Assembly (NCBI GenBank): GCA_017479705.1
Contig: JAFVCA010000050.1
Location: forward strand, 3,385 to 67,384
DNA from: Bacteroidales bacterium
Lineage (GTDB): Bacteria; Bacteroidota; Bacteroidia; Bacteroidales; P3
Direction of reading: 5' to 3'
DNA length: 64,000 nucleotides
A program made the position numbers and the translations under genes. The number at the start of each line of letters is the position of its first letter. The first letter of the stretch is position 1. Below are positions 3,034 through 31,073 of this stretch, piece after piece. A model generated the notes under the pieces. The model did not search any database. It was not told where the DNA came from and saw only the letters and a program-made list of their open reading frames with translations.

Positions 3034-3049
3034 GAGTAACAATGAGATA

Positions 3050-3200: not shown

Positions 3201-3210
3201 GCCGCAACAG

Positions 3211-3284: not shown

Positions 3285-3299
3285 ATTGTGTTCCTTCCG

Positions 3300-3374: not shown

Positions 3375-3421
3375 TTGCCTTTAAGAAAAAAGACGCCTCG
3401 TGGACGTCTCTCTCTCTTTCT

Positions 3422-3512
3422 TGGCGGAGAAGGGGGGATTCGAACCCCCGGTACCCTAATCGAGTACGACAGTTTAGCAAACTGTTGGTTTCAGCCACTC
3501 ACCCACCTCTCC
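3422..3512 (-). tRNA. tRNA-Ser (anticodon GCT), class II with long variable arm, CCA encoded
   Basis: Reverse complement is GGAGAGGTGGGTGAGTGGCTGAAACCAACAGTTTGCTAAACTGT...GGGGGTTCGAATCCCCCCTTCTCCGCCA. Anticodon loop TTGCTAA. Confidence 0.9.
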
Positions 3513-3563
3513 GTAGCTGCCATTTCTATGAAAACCTTTGTTTCCTTTCAGCGAAATCGGGTG

Positions 3564-3571
3564 CAAAAGTA
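3564..3571 (-). promoter_or_regulatory. Bacteroidetes -7 box (TActTTTG) upstream of the tRNA cluster
   Basis: The minus strand reads TACTTTTG about 50 nt upstream of the tRNA-Ser 5' end. This matches the TAnnTTTG consensus. Confidence 0.45.
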
Positions 3572-3629
3572 CGAACTTTTTTTGAATTGGACAAAACTTT
3601 TTTCGCTTTTTGCTCTTTTCAGCTCCAAA

Positions 3630-4376: not shown

Positions 4377-4390
4377 TTGTATTGCGATTA

Positions 4391-5254: not shown

Positions 5255-5342
5255 CTTTCTGCAAATTATGGGTTGAATGCAAGAATGTGTTAATTAGTCA
5301 GTCATGAGTTACACATTAGCACATTCTCGCATTTCAATAATT

Positions 5343-12568: not shown

Positions 12569-13210
12569 TTAGGATTGGCGGCGGTTGCTAAGGGTGAAGA
12601 AGATGCCGAAGATGATGTGCCACAGGCCGAACCCTAAGAACCAGAAGAGAAGGCCCTGATTGACCACAAAGCAGTCGACAATGCCGAGCAGCAACTCGAC
12701 GTAGCCGAGGAGGGCAAGGCGGGAGGTGGTGTGGTGGGCGGAGTTGATGAGGGCAAGGCCGTAGAAGACCAGCATGAAGGAGGAGGTGATGCCGTAATGG
12801 CCCTGTTGCAGCATGGCGAGGCAGAGCAGTCCGCCCGTGGCAGCGGGGACGAAAAAAGCCCACAGGGAGCGGCGCACCGTCTGGTCGAAGACAAAACGCT
12901 GGTTGACGCGCTTGGTCTTGAAGTAGGACATGAGGCAGACGGTGCCGAACGACAGGACCAGCAGCACGAGGGCGCAAAGGATGGCGGCCCATGTGCGGCC
13001 CGGAGTGTTGAGGGCAAAGTCCGTGGCCCACGAGGGCAGCCAGCTGTAAGGCTCGTGATTGCCCAGCAGCAGCCATGCCCCAAACGAGACAATGGAGGCG
13101 TAAATCCCGATGATGATGATGGAAATTCCGCTGATGGTTTGGAAGCGGGAGGACTTTTGCATGAGGTCCTTTATCTCTCTGAGTGTGTCGATTGCGTCGT
13201 TGTTGTTCAT
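12569..13210 (-). CDS. Multi-pass membrane protein, unknown function
   Basis: 213 aa with about 5 hydrophobic helices. Stops 5 nt before the wHTH gene. Same architecture as 50385-51020. Confidence 0.65.
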   Translation of the reverse strand: MNNNDAIDTLREIKDLMQKSSRFQTISGISIIIIGIYASIVSFGAWLLLGNHEPYSWLPSWATDFALNTPGRTWAAILCALVLLVLSFGTVCLMSYFKTKRVNQRFVFDQTVRRSLWAFFVPAATGGLLCLAMLQQGHYGITSSFMLVFYGLALINSAHHTTSRLALLGYVELLLGIVDCFVVNQGLLFWFLGFGLWHIIFGIFFTLSNRRQS

Positions 13211-13465: not shown

Positions 13466-13771
13466 ATGATGCGGATAAAAGAGATGGAACAGTGCCTTGA
13501 CCAGGCCACCGCGGCCCTCGCCCAGACCGAGGCCGCTCTCGACGCCTATCAGGCCGCCCAGCCCGCCATAGCCATGCTGGCTGCCTATCTGGGCAGCGAC
13601 GACTGGCGCAAAGACCTTGCCGCCGACGAGCGCGGCCTCCTGCCCCTGGACCTGAAGCGAGGTGTGCTGAGCGAGGACGGGATATGGAACCTGCTGGAAC
13701 GCAACCGCGAGCTGCTGCAACAGATGCGTGACCTTGCCGCCCAAGGGACAGAACCCCTCCAGCAGCCGTGA
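13466..13771 (+). CDS. Small helical protein (DUF4298-like)
   Basis: 101 aa. MEQCLDQATAALAQTEAALDAYQAAQPAIAMLAAYLGSDDWRKD resembles the DUF4298 family from memory. Confidence 0.5.
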   Translation: MMRIKEMEQCLDQATAALAQTEAALDAYQAAQPAIAMLAAYLGSDDWRKDLAADERGLLPLDLKRGVLSEDGIWNLLERNRELLQQMRDLAAQGTEPLQQP

Positions 13772-13817
13772 ATCGATACAGATTAACGTAATAATGTAAT
13801 AATCCCCTAATTCCACA

Positions 13818-14549
13818 ATGAAAAACAAGACCCTTTTGCTGCTCCTGCTGCCATTGCTGGCCCTCCCGACAGCCCGCGGGCAGGAACAACCCGCCGGGAG
13901 CAGCCCCCTCACCCTGACAGGCTACGGCCTCTACGATTTCCACTACGCCACGGGCGGTCTCGGCGGCGGCGCCCTCCTGCTGGACTGGCAGGCTGCCCCC
14001 GCGTTCACCCTCAGTGTCGGGGCCGAATACGGCAGCAGCAACCGCATATCGGCCAAGCTCCGCGGGCAGGCCACGCTCTTCACCTCGCACGGTGGTGGAC
14101 GGCTGGCGTTGGAAAACAGTTACCTCTTCCGCCATTTCCCCTCGCTCAACTTGCAGGAGTTCACCGGCGCGTTGCAGGTGGCTTGGTATGCCCGCCACGT
14201 AAATATCCATTTGGGGCTCTGCAACCGCTACACCGCCGAGCTCGTCCAACGCAGCAACGGCGGTATGGGCACCGTGTTCGAACCCATGAACGTCATGTTT
14301 GCCGCCGAGGGTTGGTGGAACAACCAGCTTGGGGCCTCGCCGTGGAACGTAGGGCTGCGGTGGAGCAACTACAATGACTTTATCATTGAGCGTGTGGCCA
14401 ACTGGTTCTTCAGTGCCAAGGCCTCCTACCGTCTGCCCAACCGGACCACCTTCGTTGCCGAAGCGGGCATCCACCCCGTGGGGTCGCTGAACCTCACCGC
14501 CTCCTACGACGGCTGGTTCCTCCACCTCGGCGCAACAAAACAACTATAG
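13818..14549 (+). CDS. Secreted/outer-membrane protein, unknown function
   Basis: 243 aa. Signal peptide (LLLLLPLLALPTARGQ). Alternating beta-strand-like pattern rich in aromatic residues and Gly. Confidence 0.55.
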   Translation: MKNKTLLLLLLPLLALPTARGQEQPAGSSPLTLTGYGLYDFHYATGGLGGGALLLDWQAAPAFTLSVGAEYGSSNRISAKLRGQATLFTSHGGGRLALENSYLFRHFPSLNLQEFTGALQVAWYARHVNIHLGLCNRYTAELVQRSNGGMGTVFEPMNVMFAAEGWWNNQLGASPWNVGLRWSNYNDFIIERVANWFFSAKASYRLPNRTTFVAEAGIHPVGSLNLTASYDGWFLHLGATKQL

Positions 14550-14578
14550 TCTACAACCTTGTTTAAAACAGTATCCCG

Positions 14579-15445
14579 ATGAAATATAGACATATACTCA
14601 TTGTCCTCTCCCTCGTGGCGTTCACATCGTGCAACCGCCTTGACGTGGCTGGCATGTTCTTCTCCAGCGGCACACACACCGAGGACCGCGTGGCCGAATG
14701 GCTGGACTGGAACGAGAGCCATCCCGCCGTCGTCATCACCAATGCCCCGGACGATTACACCGTCTACGTCTGTTCCGACATCCATCTGGAAGGCAACACT
14801 GACCGCGTTGAGCGTTTTCTCCGCGCCGAGGGTTCCGACCCGCAGGGCCTTTTCAGCATCGTCAATGGCGACATCGCCAACGAGAGCGGTCCCCGTCCCT
14901 TCCGTCAGTTAGACAGCCTTATCCATTCCTCTGCCGCCGCCGACACCTGCTTTGTCACCATCGGCAACCACGACATCTACTTCGACTGCCAACAGTATTT
15001 CCAGCAGTATTTCCACACCTCCACCTATGCCGTCACCGTGCAGACCGTCGGCGGAGTGCGAGACCTCTTCATCTTCCTCGACAGCGGCAACGCCACCCAT
15101 GGCCGCCGCCAGCTGAGGTGGCTCCGCGACCTCTTGCAGCAGCGTGACCAGTACCGCCATGTGGTGGTCAACACCCACACCTGCCTCTTCCGCACCAGCT
15201 ATAACTACAGCACCACCCCCGCTGCCAACCTGCCGGAGGAGGAATACTACGAGTTGGTAGACCTTATGAGCAGCCATAACGTCAGCCTCTTCCTCATGGG
15301 GCACTTCCACCACAAAGAAGAGCACGCCCTTGGCGGCGTCCCCTACGTCATGACCGACAACCTCAACGACACGCACGATGCACCCTCATACCTCGTGGTG
15401 CGCTGCGCCGACAAAATATCCTACCGCTACGAAGACCTTTACTAA
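14579..15445 (+). CDS. Metallophosphoesterase (calcineurin-like) lipoprotein
   Basis: 288 aa. Lipobox (AFTSC). Motifs: CSDIHLE, NGDIANE, GNHDIYF, MGHFHH. Confidence 0.8.
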   Translation: MKYRHILIVLSLVAFTSCNRLDVAGMFFSSGTHTEDRVAEWLDWNESHPAVVITNAPDDYTVYVCSDIHLEGNTDRVERFLRAEGSDPQGLFSIVNGDIANESGPRPFRQLDSLIHSSAAADTCFVTIGNHDIYFDCQQYFQQYFHTSTYAVTVQTVGGVRDLFIFLDSGNATHGRRQLRWLRDLLQQRDQYRHVVVNTHTCLFRTSYNYSTTPAANLPEEEYYELVDLMSSHNVSLFLMGHFHHKEEHALGGVPYVMTDNLNDTHDAPSYLVVRCADKISYRYEDLY

Positions 15446-15840
15446 TCGAGTGATTGGATGGCCTCATAGAGTTGCGGGAAGCGCTGCGCCAAGACCACCG
15501 GCTTTCCCCCTTCAAGGAAACAGTGGACGCTGCGCCCCGTGCACACCACCTTGCCCTTCACCCGCATAGTGTAGGCAAAAGTAATCTTCAGCGCACTCAT
15601 CTCCGCCACCTTTACCTCCACCTCCACCACATCCTTGAACGTGGTGGAATGGCGGTATACGCACTCCACGCTCACCACGGGCGACACCACCCCCTCGGCC
15701 TCCATCCGGTCGAAGCCGTAGCCCAGCTGGTCCATCCAGTCCACGCGCGCCTCCTCCATAAAACGGACATAATTCGAATGGTGAGTAATCCCCATCCGAT
15801 CGCACTCATAATACTTTACCTCATGCTGATAACATTTCAT
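15442..15840 (-). CDS. Acyl-CoA thioesterase (4HBT/YbgC-like hot-dog fold)
   Basis: The ORF track extends to 15888. MKCYQHEVKYYECDRMGITHHSNYVRFMEEAR aligns with the usual N-terminus, so the start is taken at 15840. Confidence 0.75.
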   Translation of the reverse strand: MKCYQHEVKYYECDRMGITHHSNYVRFMEEARVDWMDQLGYGFDRMEAEGVVSPVVSVECVYRHSTTFKDVVEVEVKVAEMSALKITFAYTMRVKGKVVCTGRSVHCFLEGGKPVVLAQRFPQLYEAIQSLD

Positions 15841-15958
15841 ATTGCTGATGCGTATTGCTTTAAAAAAGAGCCATAATCCACTCTCCAAAACGCAACAACA
15901 GCCCTTTTATTGTGTTCCGCTGCCCCGTGTCATTCGTTCTCACCAAGTGGAAATAGTC

Positions 15959-15989
15959 TTTTCAATTTTCACCTTTCAATTTTCAATTC
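15959..15989 (+). repeat. Heptamer array (TTTTCAA-type), left flank of the AT-rich island
   Basis: ttttcaattttcacctttcaattttcaattc. It shares tttcaattttcacctttcaattttcaatt with 26529-26565. Confidence 0.9.
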
Positions 15990-16081
15990 AAAAAAGCTAT
16001 GATTCGCCCCCGCAACCCTCAGTCAAATACATGATAATAAATCAATAATAAAAAACCTTTTTTGGATTGGAATATTTTTTG

Positions 16082-16089
16082 TATTTTTG
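16082..16089 (+). promoter_or_regulatory. -7 box TAttTTTG with an upstream TTTG (16061-16064); candidate island promoter
   Basis: tatttttg lies 53 nt upstream of the ATG at 16142. A TTTG element sits about 20 nt further upstream, the expected spacing for the -33 element. Confidence 0.5.
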
Positions 16090-16141
16090 CAATTGCTTAT
16101 TGTATACAATACAGCACCGTAAAAGTAGATAACACACAACG

Positions 16142-17221
16142 ATGATGGACGGATTCAAAAACATAGAGATAAAGAATTTCAGGGGCATCGACCACCTGAA
16201 AATAGAGGATTTTGGGCGTGTCAACATCTTCCTCGGACAGAACAGTTCGGGCAAAAGCTCCGTATTGGAGGCTGTCAACCTCTCCTTGAACATGTCGAAT
16301 CCCGACATGCCGCAGGTAATAAACAATATTCGTGCCCGCAAGTCGTTCAGCACATTCTTGGATGCAAAATACCTTTTCCACAATCTGGACATGTCCAACC
16401 CTCCAGACCTGACGTTGGAGCAAACCGATGGCACGGTGCGGCATCTGACCCTGGGGATGACTTATGTCTTTGATGAATTGGCAGAGCCCAAGAATGAACC
16501 CATCCAGCAAGCGGGAACAATAGTCTATGTAAACACGCTGGAGATAACCTTCAGCACAACTGCCCAGGGGGAAAAGCAAGACTACAAAAGCTGGCTGCGC
16601 ATCAACCCTGCCGGTATTGTAGTCAACCGGAAGATTGCGGACAACTACTTAGAGAGACTGAGAGGGAGGGTGATTTCTGCTGATCTGACCTCCGACAACA
16701 CCGTATGGGATTTGGCTGAACTCTTTAAACGGAACCAGAAGAACATCGTTTTGTCCACATTGAAGCTATTCGATGCCCGGATCAATAGCATCGAAATCCT
16801 TAACGATGATGTATACATCGGTTTTGACGGCATGGCAGAGATGCTCCCATCGCGCATGACAGGCGACGGTCTGAGGCGATATCTGAGTATTGCCGCAAGC
16901 GCAGCCAACCCTATGATGCACATTATCATGCTGGATGAGATAGACAACGGCTTGCACTATTCTGCATACAAAAAACTCTGGGAAGCCCTTTTCATTCTGG
17001 CTGTAGGAACCAACAAACAGCTGTTCGTCACCACCCACAGCAAAGAGACACTATACAGTTTGAGCGAGATGCTGGAAGAACACGCCGAATATAGAAACGA
17101 GCTAAGCTTGTACACGCTGGAGCAGACAAAACTCAAAGGGCACCAGGCCTACAAGTACACCTACGAAGGCCTGTCGGGTGCTTGCGAGAATGATGTGGAA
17201 ATTAGAAGCATGGTTAAATAA
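16142..17221 (+). CDS. ABC-type / AAA_21-like ATPase (SMC/RecF-like, no nuclease domain visible)
   Basis: 359 aa. Walker A GQNSSGKSS, signature-like MTGDGLRR, Walker B IIMLDEIDNGLH, H-loop FVTTHSKE. Confidence 0.85.
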   Translation: MMDGFKNIEIKNFRGIDHLKIEDFGRVNIFLGQNSSGKSSVLEAVNLSLNMSNPDMPQVINNIRARKSFSTFLDAKYLFHNLDMSNPPDLTLEQTDGTVRHLTLGMTYVFDELAEPKNEPIQQAGTIVYVNTLEITFSTTAQGEKQDYKSWLRINPAGIVVNRKIADNYLERLRGRVISADLTSDNTVWDLAELFKRNQKNIVLSTLKLFDARINSIEILNDDVYIGFDGMAEMLPSRMTGDGLRRYLSIAASAANPMMHIIMLDEIDNGLHYSAYKKLWEALFILAVGTNKQLFVTTHSKETLYSLSEMLEEHAEYRNELSLYTLEQTKLKGHQAYKYTYEGLSGACENDVEIRSMVK

Positions 17222-17229
17222 TAACATGA

Positions 17230-18177
17230 ATGAAAACACAATCCTATTTTAACTATATTGAAGAACGCCTCACTTGGCTTTCAACTAGAATTACTTCGAG
17301 AGGGGCGCTAAACATGTATGACATCAATATACATTGCGAAGACTTCTATATGCGTTTGCTGAATCTTCTTTACGGATGGGATTTAGTAAATGCCAACACC
17401 ATTCAGCGGAATAATCCAGCCGTTGACTTGATTTATACGTCGGAAAATATAATCGTTCAGGTTTCATCGACAAACACTACCACTAAAATCCAGTCTTCAC
17501 TGGATAAATTAGATGCCAAATATACTGGCTGTAATTATAAATTTGTCTCTATTGCAAAGTCCACTGACAAACTTAAAGAACACAAGTTCAACACACCTTC
17601 AAATCTCAACATACAATTTAATGCACCCTATGATATCTATGATATTAATACTCTGTTGAATAAAATCAAATCTCTATCCGCAGCGGAAATGGAAGAGGTT
17701 TATAAGTTTATTAAACAAGAACTACATTTTGAAACAGATGAATTGAAACTTGAAACCGGACTTGCTCACGTAATAAACGAACTTTCAGAGATTAAATTAG
17801 AGAATAATGAAGAGAAGTTCGATACTGTTTCTTTCGATATTGATAATAAAATTATAAAAAACAATCTTGCTGTTTTTAAGGACATTATCGAACAATATGA
17901 TGTATATTTCTATGTTGTGCAAAGAATCTATGATGAGTTTGACACGATGGGGAATAATAAAAGTTACGCTGTCCTTCAGACTATCAGAAAAGAGTATTTA
18001 GAATTAAAAACGAAATTCTCTGGCGATGAATTGTATAAAGCCATTGCACAAAATGTCAAAGAAAAATTATCTTTGAGTGCGAATCTGAAACAGTTTTATG
18101 ATGATGATTTAGAATTATATGTTGATATCATTTTAGTTGATGCATTCATTGAATGCAAGATTTTCGAAAAACCCTAA
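17230..18177 (+). CDS. ABC-3C effector component, SMEK-like N-terminal domain
   Basis: 315 aa. FNYIEERLTWLSTRITSRGALNMYDINIHCEDFYMRLLNLLYGWDLVNANTIQRNNPAVDLIYTSENIIVQVSST matches my recollection of SMEK-domain proteins. Gene order is effector, small ORF, then DUF2326 ATPase. Confidence 0.6.
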   Translation: MKTQSYFNYIEERLTWLSTRITSRGALNMYDINIHCEDFYMRLLNLLYGWDLVNANTIQRNNPAVDLIYTSENIIVQVSSTNTTTKIQSSLDKLDAKYTGCNYKFVSIAKSTDKLKEHKFNTPSNLNIQFNAPYDIYDINTLLNKIKSLSAAEMEEVYKFIKQELHFETDELKLETGLAHVINELSEIKLENNEEKFDTVSFDIDNKIIKNNLAVFKDIIEQYDVYFYVVQRIYDEFDTMGNNKSYAVLQTIRKEYLELKTKFSGDELYKAIAQNVKEKLSLSANLKQFYDDDLELYVDIILVDAFIECKIFEKP

Positions 18178-18183
18178 TTAATC

Positions 18184-18408
18184 ATGCTATTGCCAGACAA
18201 TATTCGACCAGAGAACAGTGTATACTACAATGGGGCCTTTGTATTACAAGTACTCCAAAAATCGGGTGATATGCACATGTTTGATTTATACTCAAAAGTT
18301 TCTGAGATTGTACAAATTAGTTTTTCCTTATATTTACTATGTCTTGATTGGCTGTACTTAATCAATGTGGCAAAAATAGAAGGAGAGGAGGTCATATTAT
18401 GTTTATAA
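18184..18408 (+). CDS. ABC-3C middle component (small helical protein)
   Basis: 74 aa. Starts 6 nt after the effector stop and overlaps the ATPase start by 10 nt (ATGTTTATAA). Size and position fit the middle-component family. Confidence 0.55.
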   Translation: MLLPDNIRPENSVYYNGAFVLQVLQKSGDMHMFDLYSKVSEIVQISFSLYLLCLDWLYLINVAKIEGEEVILCL

Positions 18409-20102
18409 AATCATTAACCATTTACAATGACAATGGTGTTATTCGAGAAATTCCTTTTCACCAAGGTCTCAACCTCATTGTTGATAATACACCCAACGCC
18501 ACAACCGAAACTGGAAACAATGTCGGAAAAACAACGGTGCTAAAGTTAGTGGATTTTTGTTTGGGCAAAGATGCCGGTATAATTTATTCAGACCCTGCAA
18601 ATCCCAAAGTGGAACATAAAAATGTCAAGGAATTTCTGATTAATACAAATGTTGTCATTGAACTAATTCTAACAACTGATTTTGAAAGAAGAGATGTCGT
18701 TATTAAACGGAATTTCAAAAATCGCTCGAATGCTATTCGAGAGATAAATGGCGTTAATATTACAAATGAAGAAGATTATCCACAAGTTTTAGAACAAGCC
18801 ATTTGGGGGATTGAAAGTGACAAGCCTACATTCCGTCAAATCATTTCTCATAACATTCGCTATTCTGACCAAAATGTTTCGAATGTTTTAAAAACCCTGA
18901 ATCCATACACCTCTGATACAGAGTACGAATCTTTGTATCTATTCATGTTCGGTTGTAATTTCGAACATGGGAGTATCCGTCATCAAACATTGGAAAAACT
19001 AAAGGCTGACAAAAATTTCAAGACACGTCTGGAAAAAAGCAATAGCAAAAGTACCTATCTTTCACTTTTAGGACTTGTTGATGCTCGAATCGATGAGTTG
19101 CAAAAAAAGAAAGCCAAATTGAACATCAATCCGAACTTTGCAGCCGATATGGATGCTTTGAATGCCATAAAATATCAAATCAACAATCTAAGTTCTGAAA
19201 TCAGCACAACTCAATTGCGCCATGATATGATTCTTGAGGCGCAACGGGAATCGGAATCTCAAAAAGCAAACATTGACACCGCCCAACTAGCATTGATTTA
19301 CAAGCAAGCCAAAGTACTAATTCCAGATTTACAGCGCACTTTTGAAGAATTGGTCGCATACCACAACCAAATGCTTGACAACAAGGTGGGATTCATTTTG
19401 AAATCTTTGCCACGTATTAAGGAAAAACTTGATTCATTACAAAAAGAATTACGAAACCTGCTCATAAAAGAAGATGCTTTGACACAAAAAGTGGTTAAAT
19501 CCAATACGTATGACGAATTAGAAAATCTCATCAACGAATTAAATCAAAAACACCAAGAAAAGGGTGAATATGAGAATATTATCGAGCAAATAAACACAGT
19601 GGAGAATGAGATATTACAATCAGAAAACGAACTGAGAACCATTGATGACGACTTGTTTTCTGATTCATTTAAGAATCATGTTCAAGAGCAAGTTAACAAA
19701 TTCAATATTTTGTTTTCCCAGATATCCCGCCAAATCTATGACGAAGAATATGTCATTAGATTTGATTCTGTACTAAACAAAAAAACCGGAACTAATATCT
19801 ATAAGTTTTCTTCTTTTAATGCCAATCTTAGTACAGGAAAAAAAATGGGCGAAATATCTTGTTTCGACATTGCTTATACCATGTTCGCACGTCAAGAAAA
19901 CATTCCCCATTTGGATTTTATTTTGAACGATAAGAAAGAATTAATGAGCGACAACCAACTTATCCGTATCTCGAAAATAGTTGAAGAACAAAACATACAA
20001 TTTGTTGCTTCCATATTAAAAGACAAACTTCCTTCTGAAATCAATCAACCTAGACTATTTGTGGTGGAATTATCTCAGGACGACAAACTATTTAGAATCT
20101 AA
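18399..20102 (+). CDS. ABC-3C ABC ATPase (DUF2326 / YydD-like, coiled-coil insert)
   Basis: Start moved to the ATG at 18399 (MFIKSLTIYN), which is preceded by aggagaggagg. Walker A TGNNVGKTT, long central coiled coil, signature-like LSTGKK, Walker B-like LDFILND. Confidence 0.7.
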   Translation: MFIKSLTIYNDNGVIREIPFHQGLNLIVDNTPNATTETGNNVGKTTVLKLVDFCLGKDAGIIYSDPANPKVEHKNVKEFLINTNVVIELILTTDFERRDVVIKRNFKNRSNAIREINGVNITNEEDYPQVLEQAIWGIESDKPTFRQIISHNIRYSDQNVSNVLKTLNPYTSDTEYESLYLFMFGCNFEHGSIRHQTLEKLKADKNFKTRLEKSNSKSTYLSLLGLVDARIDELQKKKAKLNINPNFAADMDALNAIKYQINNLSSEISTTQLRHDMILEAQRESESQKANIDTAQLALIYKQAKVLIPDLQRTFEELVAYHNQMLDNKVGFILKSLPRIKEKLDSLQKELRNLLIKEDALTQKVVKSNTYDELENLINELNQKHQEKGEYENIIEQINTVENEILQSENELRTIDDDLFSDSFKNHVQEQVNKFNILFSQISRQIYDEEYVIRFDSVLNKKTGTNIYKFSSFNANLSTGKKMGEISCFDIAYTMFARQENIPHLDFILNDKKELMSDNQLIRISKIVEEQNIQFVASILKDKLPSEINQPRLFVVELSQDDKLFRI

Positions 20103-20116
20103 ATGAAGAAGTATTT

Positions 20117-21154
20117 ATGGCAGAGGAATATAAATATAAGGGTATCGACCTATTCTGTGGGATTGGAGGATTCCGTTTAGCGATGGAGGATAATAATGTT
20201 GACTGTGTCTTTTCGTCCGATATTGACCAATTTGCACAGCAAACATATCAAGCTAATTTTGGAGAAATCCCCGCTGGAGATATCACAAAAATTAGGGCTG
20301 CGGATATTCCAAAGTTTGATATTCTGGCAGCAGGTTTTCCTTGCCAGCCATTCAGCTATGCAGGACTTGGAAAAGGTTTCGAAGACAAGACACGAGGCAC
20401 ACTTTTCTTTGAAATATGCCGGATTTTGTCTTATCATAAACCCAAAATGTTTTTTTTGGAAAATGTGAAAGGGCTTGTTTCTCATAGAAACGGGGAAACC
20501 CTTTCTACTATTCTCTCATCGTTACAAGAGTTAGGATATGATGTTCATTGGAAAGTATTAAGCTCTTTAGATTATGGACTTCCTCAAAAAAGAGAACGTT
20601 GGTACTGTGTCGGTTTTGACAAGAAAACGACATTCCAATGGCCTGATAAAGTAAAGGGCAATCCAACTTTAAGAGATATTATTGATTTATCAGATGATAA
20701 CAAATCACTCAAACTTAGCAAGTTTGAAATGGACCGCATTGAATACCACTTTGCACATTGCAAGCAACAAGAAAGAGTACAACATGATAATTCAAAATAC
20801 AAACCTAATACAAAAAAAGGAAAATATGGTATCTTTTCATTCCAAAAACCTGACGGCTCATTGAGATTTCATGTAGGAGATGTGGCAAAAACCCAAATAC
20901 AAGAAGCATTCTATGCATGTTTAGACACATATGCACCAACCATAATAGCCGGAAGAACTCCTAAACTCTGGGATATTGGCAGAAAGCTTTCTATTCTTGA
21001 AGCAAAACGCTTACAGGGCTTCCCCGATGACTTTGTTATGCCGGTTTCCGATGTACAGGCATATAAGCAACTGGGGAACTCCGTCAGCGTGCCTATCATC
21101 AAGAAAATTATGAAAAATATGATTAAGGCATACGAAAATACAAACGAGAAATGA
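20117..21154 (+). CDS. dcm: DNA (cytosine-5)-methyltransferase
   Basis: 345 aa. Motif I DLFCGIGGF, motif IV GFPCQPFS, motif VI ENVKGL, motif VIII QKRERWYCVG, motif X GNSVSVP. Confidence 0.95.
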   Translation: MAEEYKYKGIDLFCGIGGFRLAMEDNNVDCVFSSDIDQFAQQTYQANFGEIPAGDITKIRAADIPKFDILAAGFPCQPFSYAGLGKGFEDKTRGTLFFEICRILSYHKPKMFFLENVKGLVSHRNGETLSTILSSLQELGYDVHWKVLSSLDYGLPQKRERWYCVGFDKKTTFQWPDKVKGNPTLRDIIDLSDDNKSLKLSKFEMDRIEYHFAHCKQQERVQHDNSKYKPNTKKGKYGIFSFQKPDGSLRFHVGDVAKTQIQEAFYACLDTYAPTIIAGRTPKLWDIGRKLSILEAKRLQGFPDDFVMPVSDVQAYKQLGNSVSVPIIKKIMKNMIKAYENTNEK

Positions 21155-22941
21155 AGTATTTTGATGTTAAAACTGTAGTAAATGCATACAATGGCTTTCA
21201 AGATTGTATGACAAATAAATCTTGGGGTTATCTTGCTCTACTAAAAGGAAGTAAAAGTAGTGTCCACCCTTCAACCCCATACGAAGTTGACTTGAATATA
21301 GTTTCCAACTTCTTAGAAGATATATTCAATTTGTCCCAATCAAAAAAAGAATATGAAGGAGGACGATTTCTATACGTAGTCTTTTCAAACAAATGGGACA
21401 AATATTTTAATGACCAAGGTAAATATATTCCTAATATTTATGATATAATTGTTTGGGCTTATCGTAGAAGAAGTTTTCCTGATAGTATCACTGAAGACCA
21501 TCTCCTTAATTTATTTTCGAACGATTTTAATATACCAACCAATGTAATACAAAATAGTTTCAACACAAAAAAGAAGTTTCTGTCTTTTGCTGACTCATTA
21601 TATTCAGAGAATGATTTAAAATCAGAATTAGGGAGAATTGGGGTTGACGTTTCTAAGAATAATATTGATGCAAAAAAACAAGCCATTGTTGCTGCTCCCG
21701 GAGAAATAAGCAGAGGGCCTTTTATTCAAACATTGTATGCGGGATTGGATATAACAGATTATGTAATAATATTACAATCAAACTACTATTCCCTATATGG
21801 TGCTGAAGAGACAAAAAGTAGTGATAAGAAAAAATACTCGACAGACAATACTCTTACTAGTTTATTTCTGACAAATGAAGTCTTTTCTTCAATCAAGTCT
21901 ACCGGTCTCATATATTCTGATACTCTTATCAAGCGCCTTGCCTTTTCGCTGATGGCTAAGCCTTTTGTTATCCTGAGTGGTTTGGCTGGGTCCGGGAAGA
22001 CGCAGTTGGCGTTGGCTTTTGCCAAATGTATGAGCAAGAATATTGAGGAGCAGGTTTGCACGGTTTCCATCGGGGCGGATTGGACGAACCGCGAGCCATT
22101 GCTGGGTTATCCCAATGCATTGAGAAGCGGCGAGTATGTGATGCCGGAAAGTGGCGTACTGCAATTGCTGATGCGTGCTGAATACGATCCCGCCAAGCCC
22201 TATTTCCTGATTCTTGACGAGATGAACCTCAGCGTGGTGGAACGTTACTTTGCCGATTTCCTCAGCGCTATGGAGTCAGGGGAGAAAATCAAACTCTGGG
22301 ATGGTGGTGAGGAGGTCCCTTCAGAAATATCGCTCCCCAAGAATGTTTTTGTCATCGGCACTATCAATGTGGACGAAACCACTTATATGTTCAGCCCCAA
22401 GGTGCTCGACCGCGCCAATGTGATTGAGTTCAAGATTGCACCAGAGGAGATGGAGCATTATCTAAACGAGAAGAAAGACATCCACCTTGAAAAGGCCTAC
22501 TCGGCCTGCGCTGATATGGCTGTGGATTTTGTGGAGAAAGCAAAGACCCAGATTGAGATAAAGAATGAAGGGGAAAAAGAAATTCTGCTCTCGTTCTTCA
22601 AGGAATTGAAACAGGTCAATGCTGAGTTTGGCTACCGCACGGTGAATGAAATATGCCGTTACCTCCACTTTGCTGGTGAAGATAAGGACGGACTACAGAG
22701 TGACGAAGCCATTGACACCGCCATCTTGCAAAAACTACTCCCCAAGCTGCATGGTTCCCGGAAGAAACAGGTGCCCGTGCTAACTGCCATGTGGAAACTT
22801 TGCCTGAAAGACGGCGCTGCCAAAGAAATAGATGCTGAGTATGACGTGACCGATTTCAAATATCCTGAGTCGGCCGAGAAGATTCAACGAATGTACCACG
22901 CTGTGGTGGACAACGGATTTACCAGTTTTGCAGAAGCTTAA
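21151..22941 (+). CDS. McrB-like AAA+ (AAA_5) GTPase/ATPase restriction subunit with unassigned N-terminal domain
   Basis: 596 aa. ATGA overlap with the dcm stop. Walker A GLAGSGKT, Walker B YFLILDEMN, GTINVDETT...LDRANVIEF is typical of the McrB/LlaJI.R1 family. Residues 1 to ~270 are unrecognised. Confidence 0.8.
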   Translation: MKYFDVKTVVNAYNGFQDCMTNKSWGYLALLKGSKSSVHPSTPYEVDLNIVSNFLEDIFNLSQSKKEYEGGRFLYVVFSNKWDKYFNDQGKYIPNIYDIIVWAYRRRSFPDSITEDHLLNLFSNDFNIPTNVIQNSFNTKKKFLSFADSLYSENDLKSELGRIGVDVSKNNIDAKKQAIVAAPGEISRGPFIQTLYAGLDITDYVIILQSNYYSLYGAEETKSSDKKKYSTDNTLTSLFLTNEVFSSIKSTGLIYSDTLIKRLAFSLMAKPFVILSGLAGSGKTQLALAFAKCMSKNIEEQVCTVSIGADWTNREPLLGYPNALRSGEYVMPESGVLQLLMRAEYDPAKPYFLILDEMNLSVVERYFADFLSAMESGEKIKLWDGGEEVPSEISLPKNVFVIGTINVDETTYMFSPKVLDRANVIEFKIAPEEMEHYLNEKKDIHLEKAYSACADMAVDFVEKAKTQIEIKNEGEKEILLSFFKELKQVNAEFGYRTVNEICRYLHFAGEDKDGLQSDEAIDTAILQKLLPKLHGSRKKQVPVLTAMWKLCLKDGAAKEIDAEYDVTDFKYPESAEKIQRMYHAVVDNGFTSFAEA

Positions 22942-22955
22942 TAACCGATTGGAGT

Positions 22956-23324
22956 ATGGCAAATGAAATAGTGAAAAAAGAGGTTGCGTTGCCAGATTCG
23001 GAACTGCTGACTCTTGCCGATAGGATTGTACGAGTGATTGAAGAAAGCAGATTGGCCTTAGCCATCAGCATCAATGAGACCATGAAGACAACCTATTGGA
23101 GAATAGGGCAGCATATTGTGGAATTTGAGCAGCAAGGCAATGCCCGCGCCAAATATGGGACATCGCTATTGACTAATCTTGCCAGAATACTCAGGGCAGA
23201 AGTGGGACGCGGATACAGTCGACCCAATCTGAACAATATGCGTAAGTTTTACCTGATGTATCCAAATTTTCAGACATCTGACAAATCCGATTCAATATGT
23301 CAGATGTCTGACAAATTAACCTGA
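22956..23324 (+). CDS. DUF1016_N-only ORF (N-terminal fragment of a YhcG-like PDDEXK nuclease)
   Basis: 122 aa. TYWRIGQHIVEFEQQGNARAKYGTSLLTNLARIL...YSRPNLNNMRKFYLMYP is typical of the YhcG N-terminal domain. The C-terminal PD-(D/E)XK half is absent. Confidence 0.6.
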   Translation: MANEIVKKEVALPDSELLTLADRIVRVIEESRLALAISINETMKTTYWRIGQHIVEFEQQGNARAKYGTSLLTNLARILRAEVGRGYSRPNLNNMRKFYLMYPNFQTSDKSDSICQMSDKLT

Positions 23325-23358
23325 TTACGCAAAATGGTGAAGACGATACTGATGTAGT

Positions 23359-25695
23359 ATGGATAAACCTCTTGAAATACCCATCAACAAACCGGAAGGT
23401 GTAAAACTGATAATATACCCTCTGTCATCGAATGCGAAAGTGTTTGAGGAGGAGCAGGCTGATGATTTGGGTGAAGCGAGATGGCAGCTGGTTGAGGGGG
23501 AGGATTATGAGTATGAGTTTCAAGGTGAGCATGGGCCAGCAGTAGGGTACTACTTTAAAGAGCATGAACTTGTTCGCCCATCAAAAAGTACTCCTTCGCG
23601 AGGGTTGATTAAGACAGGCATCTATGTTGGCTGCCTGACTTTGCCTGTTGCCAATCAATCGGGCTTTGAAACGGAAGTGAGCTTTGAGGTGCGTTCCGTA
23701 AAAGTGGATTACAGGGAGGATTATCGAAGCATGCTTCACGACATCACCAGACACTTTACGGATTTGGTAATGATGCAAGGTGCACCTGTCACACAACGGT
23801 TTGAAGTGGATGTCAATGAAGACGGAAAGACGCTATACCAGCAATTTGCATTTATGAGGTCCTTGGTGGACAGCGAAGGGTTTGAAGAAGCCCTGAACAA
23901 GATATTCTACAATCCTATCCATAAGTGGACAGGGACGACCGTAGAGAAAGACATCTGTGCAGTAAAAAGGCTTGGCCGACACGAAATAAAACAGATTGCA
24001 TCCAGCAAGAACCGACTGCCATTAAGTGATGGCCAGGGTATTGAGAGTGTACCACGCAGACTGAATGTTTCCTATAAGAAAGACACTGTCGATGTAGCTG
24101 AAAACCGTTTCGTAAAATATGTATTGCAATCGTTTGTTTCGTTTTGCAGCACCATCCAGCAATGCGACAACGCCAGCCCGAGACTGAAAAACGAGGCTGA
24201 GCTAACAGCCAAGAAACTGACAGGATGGCTTAGCCGCAGTTTCTTCCTTGAGGTGGCTAACCTGCAGGTCATGACACTGAACAGTCCTGCATTGCAAAGG
24301 AAAGACGGCTACAGGGAAGTGTTACAAGCCTGGATGATGTCAAAACTGGCAGCACATATAACGTGGAAAGGCGGCGACAATGTTTATCGGGCTGGAATGC
24401 GTAATGTGGCTGCACTATACGAGTATTGGGTATTCTTCAAGTTGCTTGACATAGTCAAAGAGGCATTCCATCTGGAACTAACAGAAGCAGATGAGAAGAA
24501 GTTGGTAAAAACCGACAAGGACAACATCAATCTTGAACTCAGACAAGGCCGCATGACAATGGTAGGTGGGGAGTTCCATGAAGCCTCCCGCACATTGAAA
24601 GTCAAACTGTATTATAATAGAACTTTCAAGGGGTCAAGTCAGTTATATGGTAGCGGTTCATGGACGACCGACATGCGGCCAGACTACACTTTATCAATTT
24701 GGCCTGGAAATATCAAAGAGACCGAAGCAGAAGAACAAGACCTCATCGTTCATATACATTTTGACGCAAAGTACAAGTTGGACAGAATTCTGCTTAATGA
24801 CAAAGACATCGATGAAATTCATACTTTCAATGATAGTGACGATGAAGACCTGACCGAAGATGAGCTGATTATGAATCAAGAGAAACTTGAGGCGGAAAAA
24901 GGCATTTACAAACGGGTAGATCTGCTTAAGATGCATGCTTACAAAGATGCAATCCGTCGCACCAGCGGGGCATACATTCTTTATCCCGGCACAGAAAACA
25001 AAAGACTCAGAGGTTTTCATGAAGTGTTACCTGGATTGGGAGCGTTCTGTCTCAGTCCAGACAGATTTGAACAAGATTCAAAGGAGATAGAACACTTCTT
25101 GCATGACATATTAGAGCACATGCTCAACAGAGCATCACAGCGTGAGCGTATGGCATATCATACTTATGAAATCCTCAAAGATGAGCCTTTGATGGTTTGT
25201 GAATCCTTGCCAGAGCCATATGGTGATAATCGTAATTTAATTCCGGAGGAGACTTTTGTGTTAATGGGTTCATTTCGCGACGAGAATCATTTGAAGTGGA
25301 TACTCAAAAACAAGATCTATAATACCAGAACAGGGACAAAGAACGGCTCCTTGAGATTGAAACAAGAAATCACAACAGCGAAATATGTCTTACTTCATAG
25401 TGATAGTAAACAACTCATGCTGAGGTTGGGCAACAAAGGTCCTCGAGTGATGTCGAAAGCGGTCTTGGAAAAAATGCCTTATTCTAGTTTGTACTCTCCA
25501 AACTCGGACTATTATGTTGTTTTTGATATCGCTAACGCAGAACCTGAAAAAGAGTTTAAGAATGTCCAATGGAATATCTACAAAATGGGTCAGGACGGGA
25601 TAATAAAACAAGGCCCTTTGAGTGCCGAGCCAGTAGGAGTGTCCTTGGCAACTTTAATGAAATACGTAATAAAAGAATACCCAAACACAGAATAA
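23359..25695 (+). CDS. McrC-like / DUF2357 PD-(D/E)XK restriction nuclease subunit with C-terminal extension
   Basis: 778 aa. Nuclease core MRPDYTLSIW ... HIHFDAKYK ... MHAYKDAIRRTSGAYILYPG follows the McrC-type D..(D/E)xK pattern. The last ~190 aa are unassigned. Confidence 0.7.
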   Translation: MDKPLEIPINKPEGVKLIIYPLSSNAKVFEEEQADDLGEARWQLVEGEDYEYEFQGEHGPAVGYYFKEHELVRPSKSTPSRGLIKTGIYVGCLTLPVANQSGFETEVSFEVRSVKVDYREDYRSMLHDITRHFTDLVMMQGAPVTQRFEVDVNEDGKTLYQQFAFMRSLVDSEGFEEALNKIFYNPIHKWTGTTVEKDICAVKRLGRHEIKQIASSKNRLPLSDGQGIESVPRRLNVSYKKDTVDVAENRFVKYVLQSFVSFCSTIQQCDNASPRLKNEAELTAKKLTGWLSRSFFLEVANLQVMTLNSPALQRKDGYREVLQAWMMSKLAAHITWKGGDNVYRAGMRNVAALYEYWVFFKLLDIVKEAFHLELTEADEKKLVKTDKDNINLELRQGRMTMVGGEFHEASRTLKVKLYYNRTFKGSSQLYGSGSWTTDMRPDYTLSIWPGNIKETEAEEQDLIVHIHFDAKYKLDRILLNDKDIDEIHTFNDSDDEDLTEDELIMNQEKLEAEKGIYKRVDLLKMHAYKDAIRRTSGAYILYPGTENKRLRGFHEVLPGLGAFCLSPDRFEQDSKEIEHFLHDILEHMLNRASQRERMAYHTYEILKDEPLMVCESLPEPYGDNRNLIPEETFVLMGSFRDENHLKWILKNKIYNTRTGTKNGSLRLKQEITTAKYVLLHSDSKQLMLRLGNKGPRVMSKAVLEKMPYSSLYSPNSDYYVVFDIANAEPEKEFKNVQWNIYKMGQDGIIKQGPLSAEPVGVSLATLMKYVIKEYPNTE

Positions 25696-25774
25696 CTATC
25701 AATATGGAGGCTTTTCCCCTTAGACAATTATTATTAGAGGTGTTTGATGAAACAATTCATAAAGGAACAATCCC

Positions 25775-26392
25775 ATGACCGACACGATGACACCGGAGCA
25801 GCGGCATCGCTGCATGTCGCACATACGCAGCCGCGACACCAAGCCTGAGCTGCGGGTGCGGCGTTGGCTGTGGAGCCATGGCTACCGCTACCGGCTGAAT
25901 GTGAAGAGCGTGCCGGGCAAGCCGGACATCGTCATGCGGCCTTATCGCACGGCGATATTTGTCAACGGATGCTTTTGGCATGGGCACGGCGTGGAAATTG
26001 AAAATTCAAAATTGAAAAGTGAAAAGGTTGTGGACTCCAGTGCTGCACAGATTGAGAACTCCGCATGCTGCAAGATTCCACAGACCAACCGGGAGTTCTG
26101 GCTCTCGAAGATCAGACGCAACCAGCAGCGCGACCAGCGCAACTATCGCCTTTTGCAGGAGAACGGTTGGCAGGTCATCGTGGTGTGGGAGTGCCAGCTT
26201 ACGCCCTCTACGATAGAACATACCATGCGCGGCGTGGAGCTGTTGCTCAACGAGAATATGCTCGCCCTCTACAGGCACACTCCCGCCACCTACACCCTTG
26301 CTGACGAGCCTCTCCCCCTCGCCGCTGAAGAAATTGAGCGGAGAACCTCCGCGGGTATTAATCTTAATGACTATCCGCATCATTCCGAATAG
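25775..26392 (+). CDS. vsr: Very short patch repair endonuclease Vsr, carrying an in-frame repeat insertion
   Basis: SRDTKPELRVRRWL, FVNGCFWHGH, IPQTNREFWLSKIRRNQQRD, IVVWECQL. GC-rich like the backbone. Confidence 0.9.
   Translation: MTDTMTPEQRHRCMSHIRSRDTKPELRVRRWLWSHGYRYRLNVKSVPGKPDIVMRPYRTAIFVNGCFWHGHGVEIENSKLKSEKVVDSSAAQIENSACCKIPQTNREFWLSKIRRNQQRDQRNYRLLQENGWQVIVVWECQLTPSTIEHTMRGVELLLNENMLALYRHTPATYTLADEPLPLAAEEIERRTSAGINLNDYPHHSE
25994..26026 (+). repeat. Heptamer array (TTGAAAA orientation) inside vsr
   Basis: gaaattgaaaattcaaaattgaaaagtgaaaag, translated as EIENSKLKSEK. Confidence 0.85.
26338..26352 (+). repeat. 15-nt GC hairpin repeat GCGGAGAACCTCCGC (inside the vsr 3' end)
   Basis: Exact copy. 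Translated as ERRTSAG, the same peptide as at the PnuC C-terminus. Confidence 0.9.
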
Positions 26393-26418
26393 GCCTTGGA
26401 GAGGCTTAATCCTATTAA

Positions 26419-26457
26419 CCCCAGAGTGCGAAAATCTCCGATTTTCGCACTCTGGGG
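26419..26457 (+). terminator. 18-bp perfect hairpin downstream of vsr
   Basis: ccccagagtgcgaaaatc-tcc-gattttcgcactctgggg. Confidence 0.6.
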
Positions 26458-26528
26458 CTAAGACAGCTATACCATTCGGCGTCCCGGAGAGACGCGACTT
26501 TAACACTTCGGTTCCTTGCGGATAATCG

Positions 26529-26565
26529 TTTCAATTTTCAATTTTCACCTTTCAATTTTCAATTG
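26529..26565 (+). repeat. Heptamer array (TTTTCAA-type), right flank of island + vsr
   Basis: tttcaattttcaattttcacctttcaattttcaattg. Confidence 0.9.
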
Positions 26566-28639: not shown

Positions 28640-28661
28640 CACCATCGTTCCGAGCGGAGGA

Positions 28662-28738
28662 ACTCGTTTAGGGGTGCTGCAACTTGTTGTGGCTGAGATT
28701 ACACCCTCGAACCTGATCCGGATAATGCCGGCGGAGGA
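28662..28738 (+). promoter_or_regulatory. TPP (THI-box) riboswitch
   Basis: AGGGGTGC...GGCTGAGATTACACCCTCGAACCTGATCCGGATAATGCCGGCGGAGGAA matches the TPP aptamer consensus (CUGAGA, ACCUGAUCyGGAUAAUGCCrGCG). Confidence 0.9.
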
Positions 28739-28745
28739 AAAGACT

Positions 28746-31001: not shown

Positions 31002-31008
31002 TCAAACT

Positions 31009-31073
31009 GAAAGGTGAAAATTGGAATCAGGTTTGCACACGCATTCCAATTTTCACCTTTCACCTTTCACTTT
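31009..31073. repeat. Inverted pair of heptamer-type repeats (hairpin)
   Basis: gaaaggtgaaaattggaat (31009-31027) and attccaattttcacctttc (31043-31061) are exact reverse complements. They are followed by acctttcacttt. Confidence 0.9.

Follow-up and report, generated by a model that had tools for sequence, protein, structure and literature searches.

A Bacteroidales defence locus that is probably one version of a conserved frame built by cassette swaps

Introduction

Contig JAFVCA010000050.1 of the Bacteroidales bacterium assembly GCA_017479705.1 contains, at positions 3,385 to 67,384 of its forward strand, the 64,000-nucleotide (nt) stretch analysed here, hereafter called the window. At about 16.0–26.6 kb of the window, an AT-rich string of defence genes lies between a thioesterase gene and a cupin gene. 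What is this locus, and how was it put together? The sequence-only reading described it as a multi-module island bracketed by near-identical heptamer arrays, and raised the possibility that these arrays act as recombination or insertion hotspots. We compared the locus with related genomes. It is probably a chromosomal anti-phage defence locus of an uncultured rumen bacterium that represents one version of a conserved frame built by cassette swaps, and the heptamer arrays are a dispersed repeat family with no part in its building.

Results

Gene content and composition of the locus

Families were assigned by Pfam, PADLOC, NCBIfam and PDB searches. The string contains the following elements, where MTase denotes methyltransferase, ORF open reading frame, aa amino acids and GC3 the G+C fraction at third codon positions.

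16061..16089, plus strand: promoter match, 53 nt before the first ATG and the sole well-placed one for the gene string
16142..17221, plus strand: AAA_15/AAA_21 ABC-type ATPase, AbiLi / PDC-M38A type (PADLOC, Pfam AAA_15 and AAA_21)
17230..18177, plus strand: Lamassu effector, LmuA-like, with SMEK N-domain and ABC-3C CTD10 (Pfam, PADLOC)
18184..18408, plus strand: Lamassu middle component, LmuC-like, ABC-3C MC6 (Pfam MC6, 1.4e-22)
18399..20102, plus strand: SMC/Rad50-like ABC ATPase, LmuB-like, with C-terminal DUF2326 (Pfam, PADLOC)
20117..21154, plus strand: cytosine-5 DNA MTase (Pfam DNA_methylase, 1.2e-94; TIGR00675 dcm, 311 bits)
21151..22941, plus strand: McrB-like protein, whole gene, with N-domain and GTPase domain
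21151..21897, plus strand: McrB-like N-terminal domain of ~249 aa, no known domain, GC3 0.245
21898..22941, plus strand: McrB-type AAA+ GTPase domain, NxD branch (GTINVDE), by PDB alignment, GC3 0.58
22956..23324, plus strand: 122-aa ORF with a DUF1016_N domain only (Pfam DUF1016_N, 2.4e-24; PADLOC PDC-S02)
23359..25695, plus strand: McrC-like subunit, DUF2357 and PDDEXK_7 nuclease plus ~230 C-terminal residues (Pfam)
25775..26392, plus strand: Vsr very-short-patch-repair endonuclease (TIGR00632, 146.6 bits, cut-off 97.85; Pfam Vsr, 4.5e-33)
26415..26461, plus strand: hairpin (inverted repeat I8), starting 23 nt past the vsr stop

The profile searches upheld every family call of the sequence-only reading: AAA_21 ATPase, ABC-3C triad, 5-methylcytosine (m5C) MTase, McrB-like and McrC-like subunits, and Vsr. 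All nine ORFs are intact, and the Walker motifs and the NxD motif are present in the sequences read. Eight of the ORFs (16142–25695) form the packed plus-strand string that had been described, with spacings of 6–34 nt and two stop/start overlaps, ATGTTTATAA at 18399 (10 nt) and ATGA at 21151, where the MTase stop meets the mcrB-like start; vsr follows after 79 nt.

The block is AT-rich, as had been noted by eye. Its G+C content is 39.9% (16050–25770), compared with 57.9% at 11.0–15.95 kb and 58.0% at 26.8–36 kb. The composition is uneven, with 46% G+C in the ATPase segment, 34% in the Lamassu genes, 35% in the MTase and McrB N-domain, 45% from the McrB GTPase to McrC and 56.5% in vsr. Likewise, GC3 is 0.63 in the ATPase, 0.33 in Lamassu, 0.33 in the MTase, 0.245 in the McrB N-domain, 0.58 in the McrB GTPase and 0.46 in McrC, a range of 0.25–0.63 against 0.73–0.80 in backbone genes; vsr, at 0.71, is near the backbone. 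Because GC3 jumps from 0.245 to 0.58 inside the single mcrB gene, at breakpoint 21898, this gene is chimeric.

A sigma-70 promoter scan is uninformative for Bacteroidetes, and the Bacteroidetes motif was searched for instead. Its matches are located upstream of genes and number 10 in the window, against 1.4 expected by chance. One of them, TTTG-N17-TAttTTTG, confirms the promoter proposed earlier at 16082, with TTTG at 16061 and TAttTTTG at 16082–16089. At the other end, the hairpin at 26415–26461 has perfect 22-bp arms (fold −33.2 kcal/mol, z −9.6) and is a probable transcription terminator. The string is thus probably read as one transcript, from the promoter at 16.06–16.09 kb to the hairpin at 26.42–26.46 kb.

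A conserved frame with exchangeable cassettes

Relatives were found through the cupin protein, a metagenome scan with the thioesterase (a dozen syntenic loci) and look-ups of McrB relatives; their loci are given L numbers. Segment boundaries were set by sliding identity and blastn. The flanking genes and the segments between them are as follows.

15442..15840, minus strand: 4HBT-type thioesterase, the left backbone gene (Pfam 4HBT_2, 2.7e-17)
16032/16081–17208: segment A, ATPase; 77–82% nt identity to relatives, about backbone level
17209–20128: segment B, Lamassu; 96–97% nt identity to L125, where the backbone stands at 74%
20129–21897: segment C, MTase and McrB N-domain; a type found only in L161, at 72%
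21898–25679: segment D, GTPase, DUF1016_N and McrC; 91.6% to L165, L171 and L173
25774–26331: segment E, vsr; contiguous with segment D in L171 and L173
26812..28050, plus strand: cupin_2 and carboxymuconolactone-decarboxylase (CMD)-family protein, the right backbone gene (Pfam CMD, 6.5e-23; Cupin_2, 7.7e-8)

Homology to the relatives' ATPase modules begins at 16032 or 16081. Sharp homology steps then occur at 17208–17211, 20100–20128, 21891–21898 and 25774 in many independent relatives, homology to other vsr genes stops at 26331, and the step within mcrB (21891–21898) recurs in five of them (L165, L168, L171, L173 and L175).

Related genomes carry other defence genes beside the same thioesterase (L081, L083, L089/90, L095, L104, L125 and L164–167) and beside the same vsr–cupin pair (L048 and L173). 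On the thioesterase side, backbone homology stops at the thioesterase start (15841–15845) and the adjoining cargo differs. L081 has the ATPase with a DUF3226 gene, then an MTase, GHKL and McrB; L083 and L104 have the ATPase and DUF3226, then GHKL and HNH, then MTase, McrB and McrC; L095 has a Schlafen-type helicase, DUF3843 and vsr; and L125 has the ATPase and Lamassu, followed by a different McrBC. On the vsr side, the sister genome L048 (rumen Bacteroidales metagenome-assembled genome RUG360, cupin/CMD protein 92% identical) shows DNA homology from the vsr start (window 25774) through the cupin gene, the TonB receptor and beyond, and its cargo upstream of vsr comprises two m5C MTases, an AAA_5 protein, a LlaJI-like nuclease and DUF3843. 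L173 occupies the same chromosomal place, with vsr, the cupin/CMD gene and the TonB receptor on the right at 87% nt identity, and has the order ATPase, DUF3226, MTase, GHKL, X, MTase, McrB, full-length YhcG, McrC, Vsr, cupin, TonB. The middle slot holds an MTase, GHKL and two small genes in L164–167, and Lamassu, as in the window, in L175 and L125.

Collectively, these comparisons indicate a frame that is conserved in the clade: ATPase, variable slot, MTase with McrB N-domain, and McrB GTPase–YhcG–McrC–Vsr. Since the same flanks enclose differing sets of defence genes across relatives, the locus qualifies as a chromosomal defence hotspot, one that lacks mobility genes. In agreement with the sequence-only reading, a Pfam scan of neighbouring genes (~9–33 kb) detected neither integrase nor transposase domains. 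The nearest tRNAs lie at 3.2–3.5 kb of the window. These tRNAs are remote and the flanking repeats belong to a dispersed family, so that the marks of a mobile island are lacking. The locus resembles the pheT hotspot of P. aeruginosa, which holds MADS, in having conserved boundary genes, differing cargo and no integrase. Unlike that hotspot, much of it is itself a conserved defence frame, and its exchange points lie inside defence genes too, not only at housekeeping boundaries.

Further look-ups concerned the flanking genes. An exact-protein look-up with the cupin/CMD protein found nothing, and that with the thioesterase found only a same-species contig, which matches the window at 100% identity along 14.7 kb. 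More distant thioesterase loci (69–78% identity) were not syntenic and defined no true empty site. In L164–L167, the thioesterase and the defence frame lie left of a DUF4298–hypothetical–metallophos trio, whereas in the window (13466–15840) these three lie left of the thioesterase. Since the L164–L167 thioesterase is 83% identical to that of the window and the trio 59–66%, the thioesterase may travel with the frame.

Several other observations were made at these loci. In L171/L172 the middle slot (2319–5881) encodes an HD-CE protein, an ORC/CDC6-like ATPase and a 295-aa CARF-family match (9e-33), a set for which PADLOC names no system. A MatE efflux gene (444–464 aa) lies between the thioesterase and the defence genes in most of the syntenic relatives, namely L081, L082, L092, L095, L098, L102, L104, L124 and L125 and is absent from the window (no tblastn match at E<=1). 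A 16-nt motif (TCTGACAAAT core) occurs at 21864 and 23304, each time near a breakpoint; it was considered as a recombination signal and, being a two-copy short family, is taken as a chance or linker match.

The leading ATPase

The leading ATPase matches AbiLi (3.6e-60) and PDC-M38A (4.2e-42) in PADLOC and retains intact Walker A, Walker B and H-loop motifs. In this it resembles the first gene of the two-gene AbiL / PDC-M38 systems. The second gene of those systems, encoding the DUF3226 partner (PDC-M38B), is present in relatives L081, L083, L104, L138, L171 and L173 and missing in the window, where the gene right after the ATPase is the Lamassu effector, in place of AbiLii / PDC-M38B. By gene content, the AbiL/PDC-M38 system of the window is incomplete.

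The ATPase could instead work with the MTase and McrBC, the whole string being one integrated multi-protein system, like MADS or other supersystems linked to methylation, in which Lamassu is embedded. Fitting this idea, ATPase, MTase, McrB and McrC genes recur packed, and often with overlapping codons, in L081, L083, L164–167, L171 and L173; the ATPase matches MAD3 weakly (PADLOC 9e-15; NCBIfam 2.4e-8), and McrB matches mad8 marginally (0.0015). However, the ATPase and DUF3226 together match the separate two-gene candidate PDC-M38A/B, L161, L168–170 and L048 have the McrBC unit but no ATPase with it, and the segments differ in age and history. We therefore regard an integrated system as fairly unlikely. 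Membership of MADS itself, for which the mad3 and mad8 matches and the GHKL genes of relatives had made it a candidate, was rejected. Its mandatory proteins are MAD6, MAD7 and MAD8 (bioRxiv 10.1101/2023.03.30.534895); neither mad6 nor mad7 was matched in L173 or the window, and MADS uses an MTase of another class, an N6 MTase.

The Lamassu cassette

In the locus read as a product of cassette swaps, the middle slot (17230–20102) holds what its domains identify as a type II Lamassu (ABC-3C) triad whose effector is a SMEK nuclease: an SMC-like ATPase, a small middle component and an effector with a docking C-terminal domain (CTD), in the order A-C-B. ABC-3C systems correspond to type II Lamassu, in which effector release is triggered by DNA ends (PMC10586767; bioRxiv 10.1101/2025.06.23.660979). 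The effector matches Pfam SMEK_N (1.6e-38) and CTD10 (1.9e-20) and PADLOC Aga_REase (6.7e-29). Its SMEK N-domain has a restriction-endonuclease fold, and SMEK has been treated as a nuclease domain (PMC10810196). The ATPase has the Walker A motif GNNVGKT and matches Pfam DUF2326 (2.8e-17) and PADLOC PDC-M68B (2e-33) and LmuB (3.4e-13).

The triad shares with type II Lamassu systems such as Vibrio cholerae DdmABC the gene order (effector, middle component, SMC-like ABC ATPase), an effector with an ABC-3C CTD and an ATPase with DUF2326 that matches LmuB. By analogy, sensing of DNA ends followed by effector release and oligomerisation would be expected. It differs in that the effector N-domain is SMEK, whereas the studied systems have a Cap4 nuclease; in that it is of the CTD10/MC6 kind, whereas V. 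cholerae Lamassu is CTD7/MC3; and in that its ATPase scores best in PADLOC against the candidate family PDC-M68B, ahead of LmuB. No relative of this ATPase turned up in scans of viral contigs.

In L175 (4106–4970), the Lamassu effector is split into a 192-aa SMEK_N ORF and a 76-aa CTD10 ORF, with no MC6 called, and this cassette looks like one in decay.

The McrBC-like chassis

Residues 254–412 of the McrB-like protein align to the E. coli McrB structures 6hz4, 6ut6 and 7vsr at 6e-7, with its signature INVDE aligned to E. coli NTADR. The protein also matches NCBIfam McrB (5.5e-6, below the cut-off) and PADLOC PDC-M26A (2.6e-49). Pfam gave no match in its N-terminal ~250 aa, including none to the modified-base readers MrcB_N/DUF3578, SRA, EVE and YTH. 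The McrC-like subunit matches Pfam DUF2357 (4e-38) and PDDEXK_7 (1e-28), beyond which its last ~230 C-terminal residues extend, and found no match among PDB sequences at E<=1. The roles of McrB and McrC have been described, with DUF2357 as the McrB-activating domain (PMC11090510). NxD McrB clades are often linked to MTases, and this MTase-linked clade was flagged and not yet described (Bell et al. 2024, PMC11090510). By its sequence features, the set in the window, a LlaJI-like MTase-linked NxD McrBC, belongs to that clade.

The slot between mcrB and mcrC contains, across relatives, a full YhcG, a DUF1016_N-only ORF (111–122 aa) or a Schlafen-AlbA_2 protein. Full-length YhcG (339–396 aa) holds it in L168–L175. 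In the window, the 122-aa ORF bears a deletion mark: its homology blocks to L173 overlap by 13 nt at 23328–23341. The 111–122-aa DUF1016_N form is itself retained at 96% identity in L164–167.

Co-variation of the MTase and the McrB N-domain

The N-domain was compared among the 120 closest McrB cluster representatives. Their C-terminal part is 80–94% identical to that of the window, whereas their N-terminal 120–390 residues sort into at least 17 groups that show no similarity to one another, the largest of which carries MrcB_N/DUF3578. Where an MTase lies directly upstream, its type tracks the type of N-domain, not the chassis. Between the window and L161, the MTases are 77%, the N-domains 63% and the C-terminal parts 84% identical; between the window and L165, L171 or L173, the MTases are 25–36% identical and the N-domains unrelated, and the C-terminal parts are 92–95% identical. 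Across N-domain types in general, MTases are 24–44% identical and N-domains unrelated. An IMG/VR contig, the sole MTase match in the viral-contig scans, combines a 79%-identical MTase and a homologous N-domain (28%, E 7e-23) with a different AAA_5 motor.

Because MTase and N-domain co-vary, the N-domain would recognise the target of the MTase and the enzyme would cut unmethylated DNA. The co-variation fits a LlaJI-like restriction-modification enzyme, in which the N-domain may serve as a DNA-specificity module that is exchanged jointly with the MTase. LlaJI restricts unmethylated DNA through the N-domain of R1 (PMC1459862, PMC12707154).

Like LlaJI of Lactococcus lactis (M1/M2 MTases, R1 and R2), in which the N-terminal half of R1 determines specificity, the window has an m5C MTase co-oriented with an McrB-like GTPase that combines a unique N-terminal half and a GTPase C-terminal half, plus a PD-(D/E)xK partner. 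Unlike LlaJI, it has one MTase instead of two, a GTPase of the NxD branch, a DUF2357+PDDEXK_7 nuclease partner, an extra slot (the YhcG remnant) between the subunits, and an attached Vsr. The sister genome L048 carries an RE_LlaJI-like protein and two MTases at the same locus.

A different view treats the McrB/McrC-like pair as an ordinary Type IV (modification-dependent) enzyme, next to which the m5C MTase would be functionally unrelated or an orphan. The similarity to E. coli McrBC and the NxD clade is real: GTPase homology to solved McrB, a DUF2357-PD-(D/E)xK McrC and the NxD motif, and GHKL or two-component genes, which have been described for that clade (PMC11090510), also occur in relatives at the locus. 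Moreover, relatives sharing the chassis do carry MrcB_N (DUF3578), with no adjacent MTase in L168–170, and the chassis of L175 and L125 lacks an MTase. The window protein, in which the Pfam scan detected no modified-base-reading N-domain, is paired with an MTase, so that, unlike E. coli McrBC, its enzyme is likely blocked by methylation and not dependent on it. The ATGA overlap between the MTase and mcrB and the strict co-variation of MTase and N-domain types (four types, two motors) also argue against a Type IV enzyme. A host that methylates itself while keeping an m5C-dependent nuclease in the operon would risk its own DNA, and LlaJI provides a precedent for the pairing. An ordinary Type IV enzyme is thus unlikely here.

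Returning to the LlaJI-like reading, we tentatively propose, as an idea not yet to be called probable, that the NxD-McrB GTPase / YhcG / McrC / Vsr chassis of rumen Bacteroidales is a re-targetable platform. Its specificity would be set by the MTase and N-domain cassette, joined at a fixed N-domain/GTPase junction, and it would also have a methylation-dependent mode (MrcB_N, no adjacent MTase). The ATPase gene and the GTPase-coding sequence would serve as homology arms through which Lamassu, GHKL and HD-CE/ORC/CARF modules are traded between lineages.

Vsr at the right end of the frame

Vsr is 82% identical in protein sequence to the Vsr of L048, which adjoins the same cupin gene. As in the Dcm–Vsr pairing, vsr shares a gene string with an m5C MTase and scores above the curated cut-off. 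Unlike in that pairing, three genes separate it from the MTase, it stays while the MTases upstream swap, and it carries an in-frame repeat insert.

The TIGR00632 match to Vsr comes in two stretches split by this insert. The insert is presumably ~25 residues long, judged by eye against E. coli Vsr, and would lie between FWHGH and CC of the zinc-binding loop of that enzyme. A minus-strand heptamer array (25991–26026) lies in frame inside the insert and encodes ..EIENSKLKSEK... An in-frame vsr array is likewise present in at least two other lineages (L095/L098, 2720–2755; L171/L172, near 12415), and at this position the vsr of L048 carries another insert.

The window also contains seven copies, against 0 expected, of a second dispersed repeat, the small hairpin GCGGAGAACCTCCGC (26338, 31074, 31756, 33190/33208 and 50313/50331). 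The copy at 26338 stands just past 26331, the end of vsr homology, inside the extended 3' end of the window vsr ORF. Directly after vsr, two lineages (L095, 644–2596; L171, 12818–14446) encode a fusion of WYL, an IS200-type Y1 transposase and WCX (542–650 aa), possibly a domesticated transposase or regulator attached to the locus.

Proposed assembly and working of the locus

The following sequence of events would account for the locus. The middle slot and the DUF3226 partner would have been replaced by the type II Lamassu cassette; a low-GC MTase with the first ~249 mcrB codons would have been joined to a much older, conserved GTPase/YhcG/McrC chassis; and the YhcG nuclease in the second slot would have been cut to its N-terminal 122 residues. 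Cassettes may have been exchanged by homologous recombination in conserved flanking coding sequence, to the left in the ATPase gene and to the right in the GTPase part of mcrB.

In operation, Lamassu would sense foreign DNA ends or replication intermediates and release its nuclease effector, after published work on type II Lamassu. The MTase would mark host sites with m5C, and the McrB N-domain would bind the same site when unmethylated. A GTPase hexamer with McrC would then translocate and the DNA would be cut, as in LlaJI, while Vsr would repair the T:G mismatches that arise from m5C deamination.

Several points weigh against this account. All of its mechanisms are drawn from homology and gene context, and the single transcript from spacing and motifs. 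The searches yielded neither an island-free relative nor a strain-level variant within the species. The DUF3226 partner is absent, a tblastn search of the window with the relatives' DUF3226 proteins giving nothing at E<=1, and the 122-aa ORF is a truncated YhcG-type PD-(D/E)xK nuclease that has lost ~640 nt of YhcG_C; with the ATPase partnerless and YhcG truncated, part of the string may be inert. Both the DNA target of the McrB N-domain and its preference for unmethylated sites would follow from co-variation, and the AlphaFold2 model of this domain (6-sequence alignment) is unusable (pLDDT 40.8, pTM 0.44). The McrC-like protein has no RE_LlaJI match, the Pfam scan giving DUF2357 and PDDEXK_7 only, and several parts match only PADLOC candidate systems (PDC-M26A/B, PDC-M68B).

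Taken further, some of these points would suggest that the locus has largely decayed to a remnant and no longer works as a defence set. The orphan ATPase, the deleted YhcG_C, the chimeric mcrB and the split Lamassu effector of L175 all agree with such decay. Against it, all nine ORFs are intact with their motifs, Vsr scores above its curated cut-off, the chassis is 92–95% conserved across lineages, and the short DUF1016_N form is itself kept in L164–167. We consider general decay distinctly improbable.

As a locus built by cassette swaps in a conserved frame, the string is real and fairly ordinary as a discovery, since every module belongs to a described family. Worth keeping beyond the first reading are the conserved frame, the cassette boundaries at base resolution and the joint swap of MTase and N-domain. 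The partnerless ATPase, the truncated YhcG in the 122-aa ORF and the frame with exchangeable cassettes had been missed in that reading. In abundant uncultured rumen bacteria, defence loci would diversify by recombination that swaps cassettes inside conserved defence genes, and a domain-level swap in mcrB would bring the matching MTase along. If the pairing of MTase and N-domain does set specificity, there would be many natural GTP-driven LlaJI-like variants on a near-invariant motor. Such a set would be useful for understanding McrBC-type enzymes and possibly for engineering them.

The heptamer arrays

The two arrays that flank the locus are as follows.

15958..15989, plus strand: left heptamer array of TTTCAAT/TTTCACC units, a dispersed intergenic repeat family
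26526..26565, plus strand: right heptamer array, past the terminator hairpin and before the cupin promoter, off the homology breakpoints

The sequence-only reading was right that both ends share a 29-nt string: TTTCAATTTTCACCTTTCAATTTTCAATT occurs exactly at 15960–15988 and 26536–26564, on the plus strand in both places, and the match extends to 33 nt at 97%. This direct repeat invites the view that the arrays are attachment (att)-like or recombination-prone and that insertion or exchange between them accounts for the entire 10.6-kb block with its vsr gene. The spacers that hold the arrays are unconserved in relatives, as that view would have it.

However, the heptamer-repeat 12-mer has 26 matches in the window against 0.34 expected, making up about ten arrays in 64 kb (15958; 25991, in vsr on the opposite strand; 26526; 31015/31044; 31168; 39893; 42630; 45225; 47420/47469). 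Several have the identical internal order CAAT-CAAT-CACC-CAAT. Because a third copy (47421–47448) has 28 exact bases in common with the right-hand array, the identity of the two flanking copies reflects a family consensus. About seven of some 31 intergenic gaps in the window, roughly a quarter, carry an array, so that almost any stretch of 3–10 kb would be "bracketed". Elsewhere in the window, arrays sit in spacers of otherwise collinear backbone (e.g. at 31 kb).

The junctions argue in the same direction. Relatives with other cargo have no arrays at their junctions, and every mapped breakpoint lies outside the arrays. In the orthologous spacers the heptamer arrays are missing: they do not occur in L048, and the vsr–cupin spacer of L173 contains an array of another kind, the TAATGTGT type. 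Related loci contain 0.17 arrays per 10 kb against 1.56 in the window, about ten times fewer. In addition, vsr lies inside the supposed bracket, yet it is backbone-like and is kept beside the cupin gene in L048 and L173. With the arrays dispersed, the junctions free of arrays and the breakpoints elsewhere, the hotspot idea fails, and insertion or exchange between the arrays is very improbable. The heptamer arrays are a lineage-specific dispersed intergenic repeat family without a part in island building. This removes the tempting idea of short repeat arrays as island boundaries and leaves cassette swaps inside the frame as the probable origin of the locus.

Rfam has no family at the arrays. 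Both flanking arrays are single and unstructured (left array, fold −1.7 kcal/mol, z −0.4). Inverted arrays elsewhere form hairpins, at 31008–31062 right after the TonB-receptor stop (−27.8 kcal/mol, z −7.0) and at 47421–47500 between convergent genes (−41.1 kcal/mol, z −8.7); these are possible terminators or repetitive extragenic palindromic (REP)-like elements. Intergenic tandem arrays built on ACACATTA/TAATGTGT, with periods of 8, 16, 24 and 44 nt, make up a third repeat family. This family is present at 31096, 36262, 39944, 42665, 44604, 45528, 51535 and 61029 and in L173 at 12590–12680, often beside heptamer arrays. The intergenic spacers of this clade seem to turn over through such arrays.

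Genes to the right of the locus

Beyond the cupin gene, a thiamine pyrophosphate (TPP) riboswitch (28660–28757, plus strand; Rfam RF00059, 60.5 bits) precedes the TonB-dependent receptor gene, which is followed by an NMN/Pnu-type transporter at ~31.2–31.8 kb. Given the position of the riboswitch, the listed TTG start of the receptor ORF (28629) is too far upstream. Riboswitch, receptor and transporter likely form a thiamine-uptake operon.

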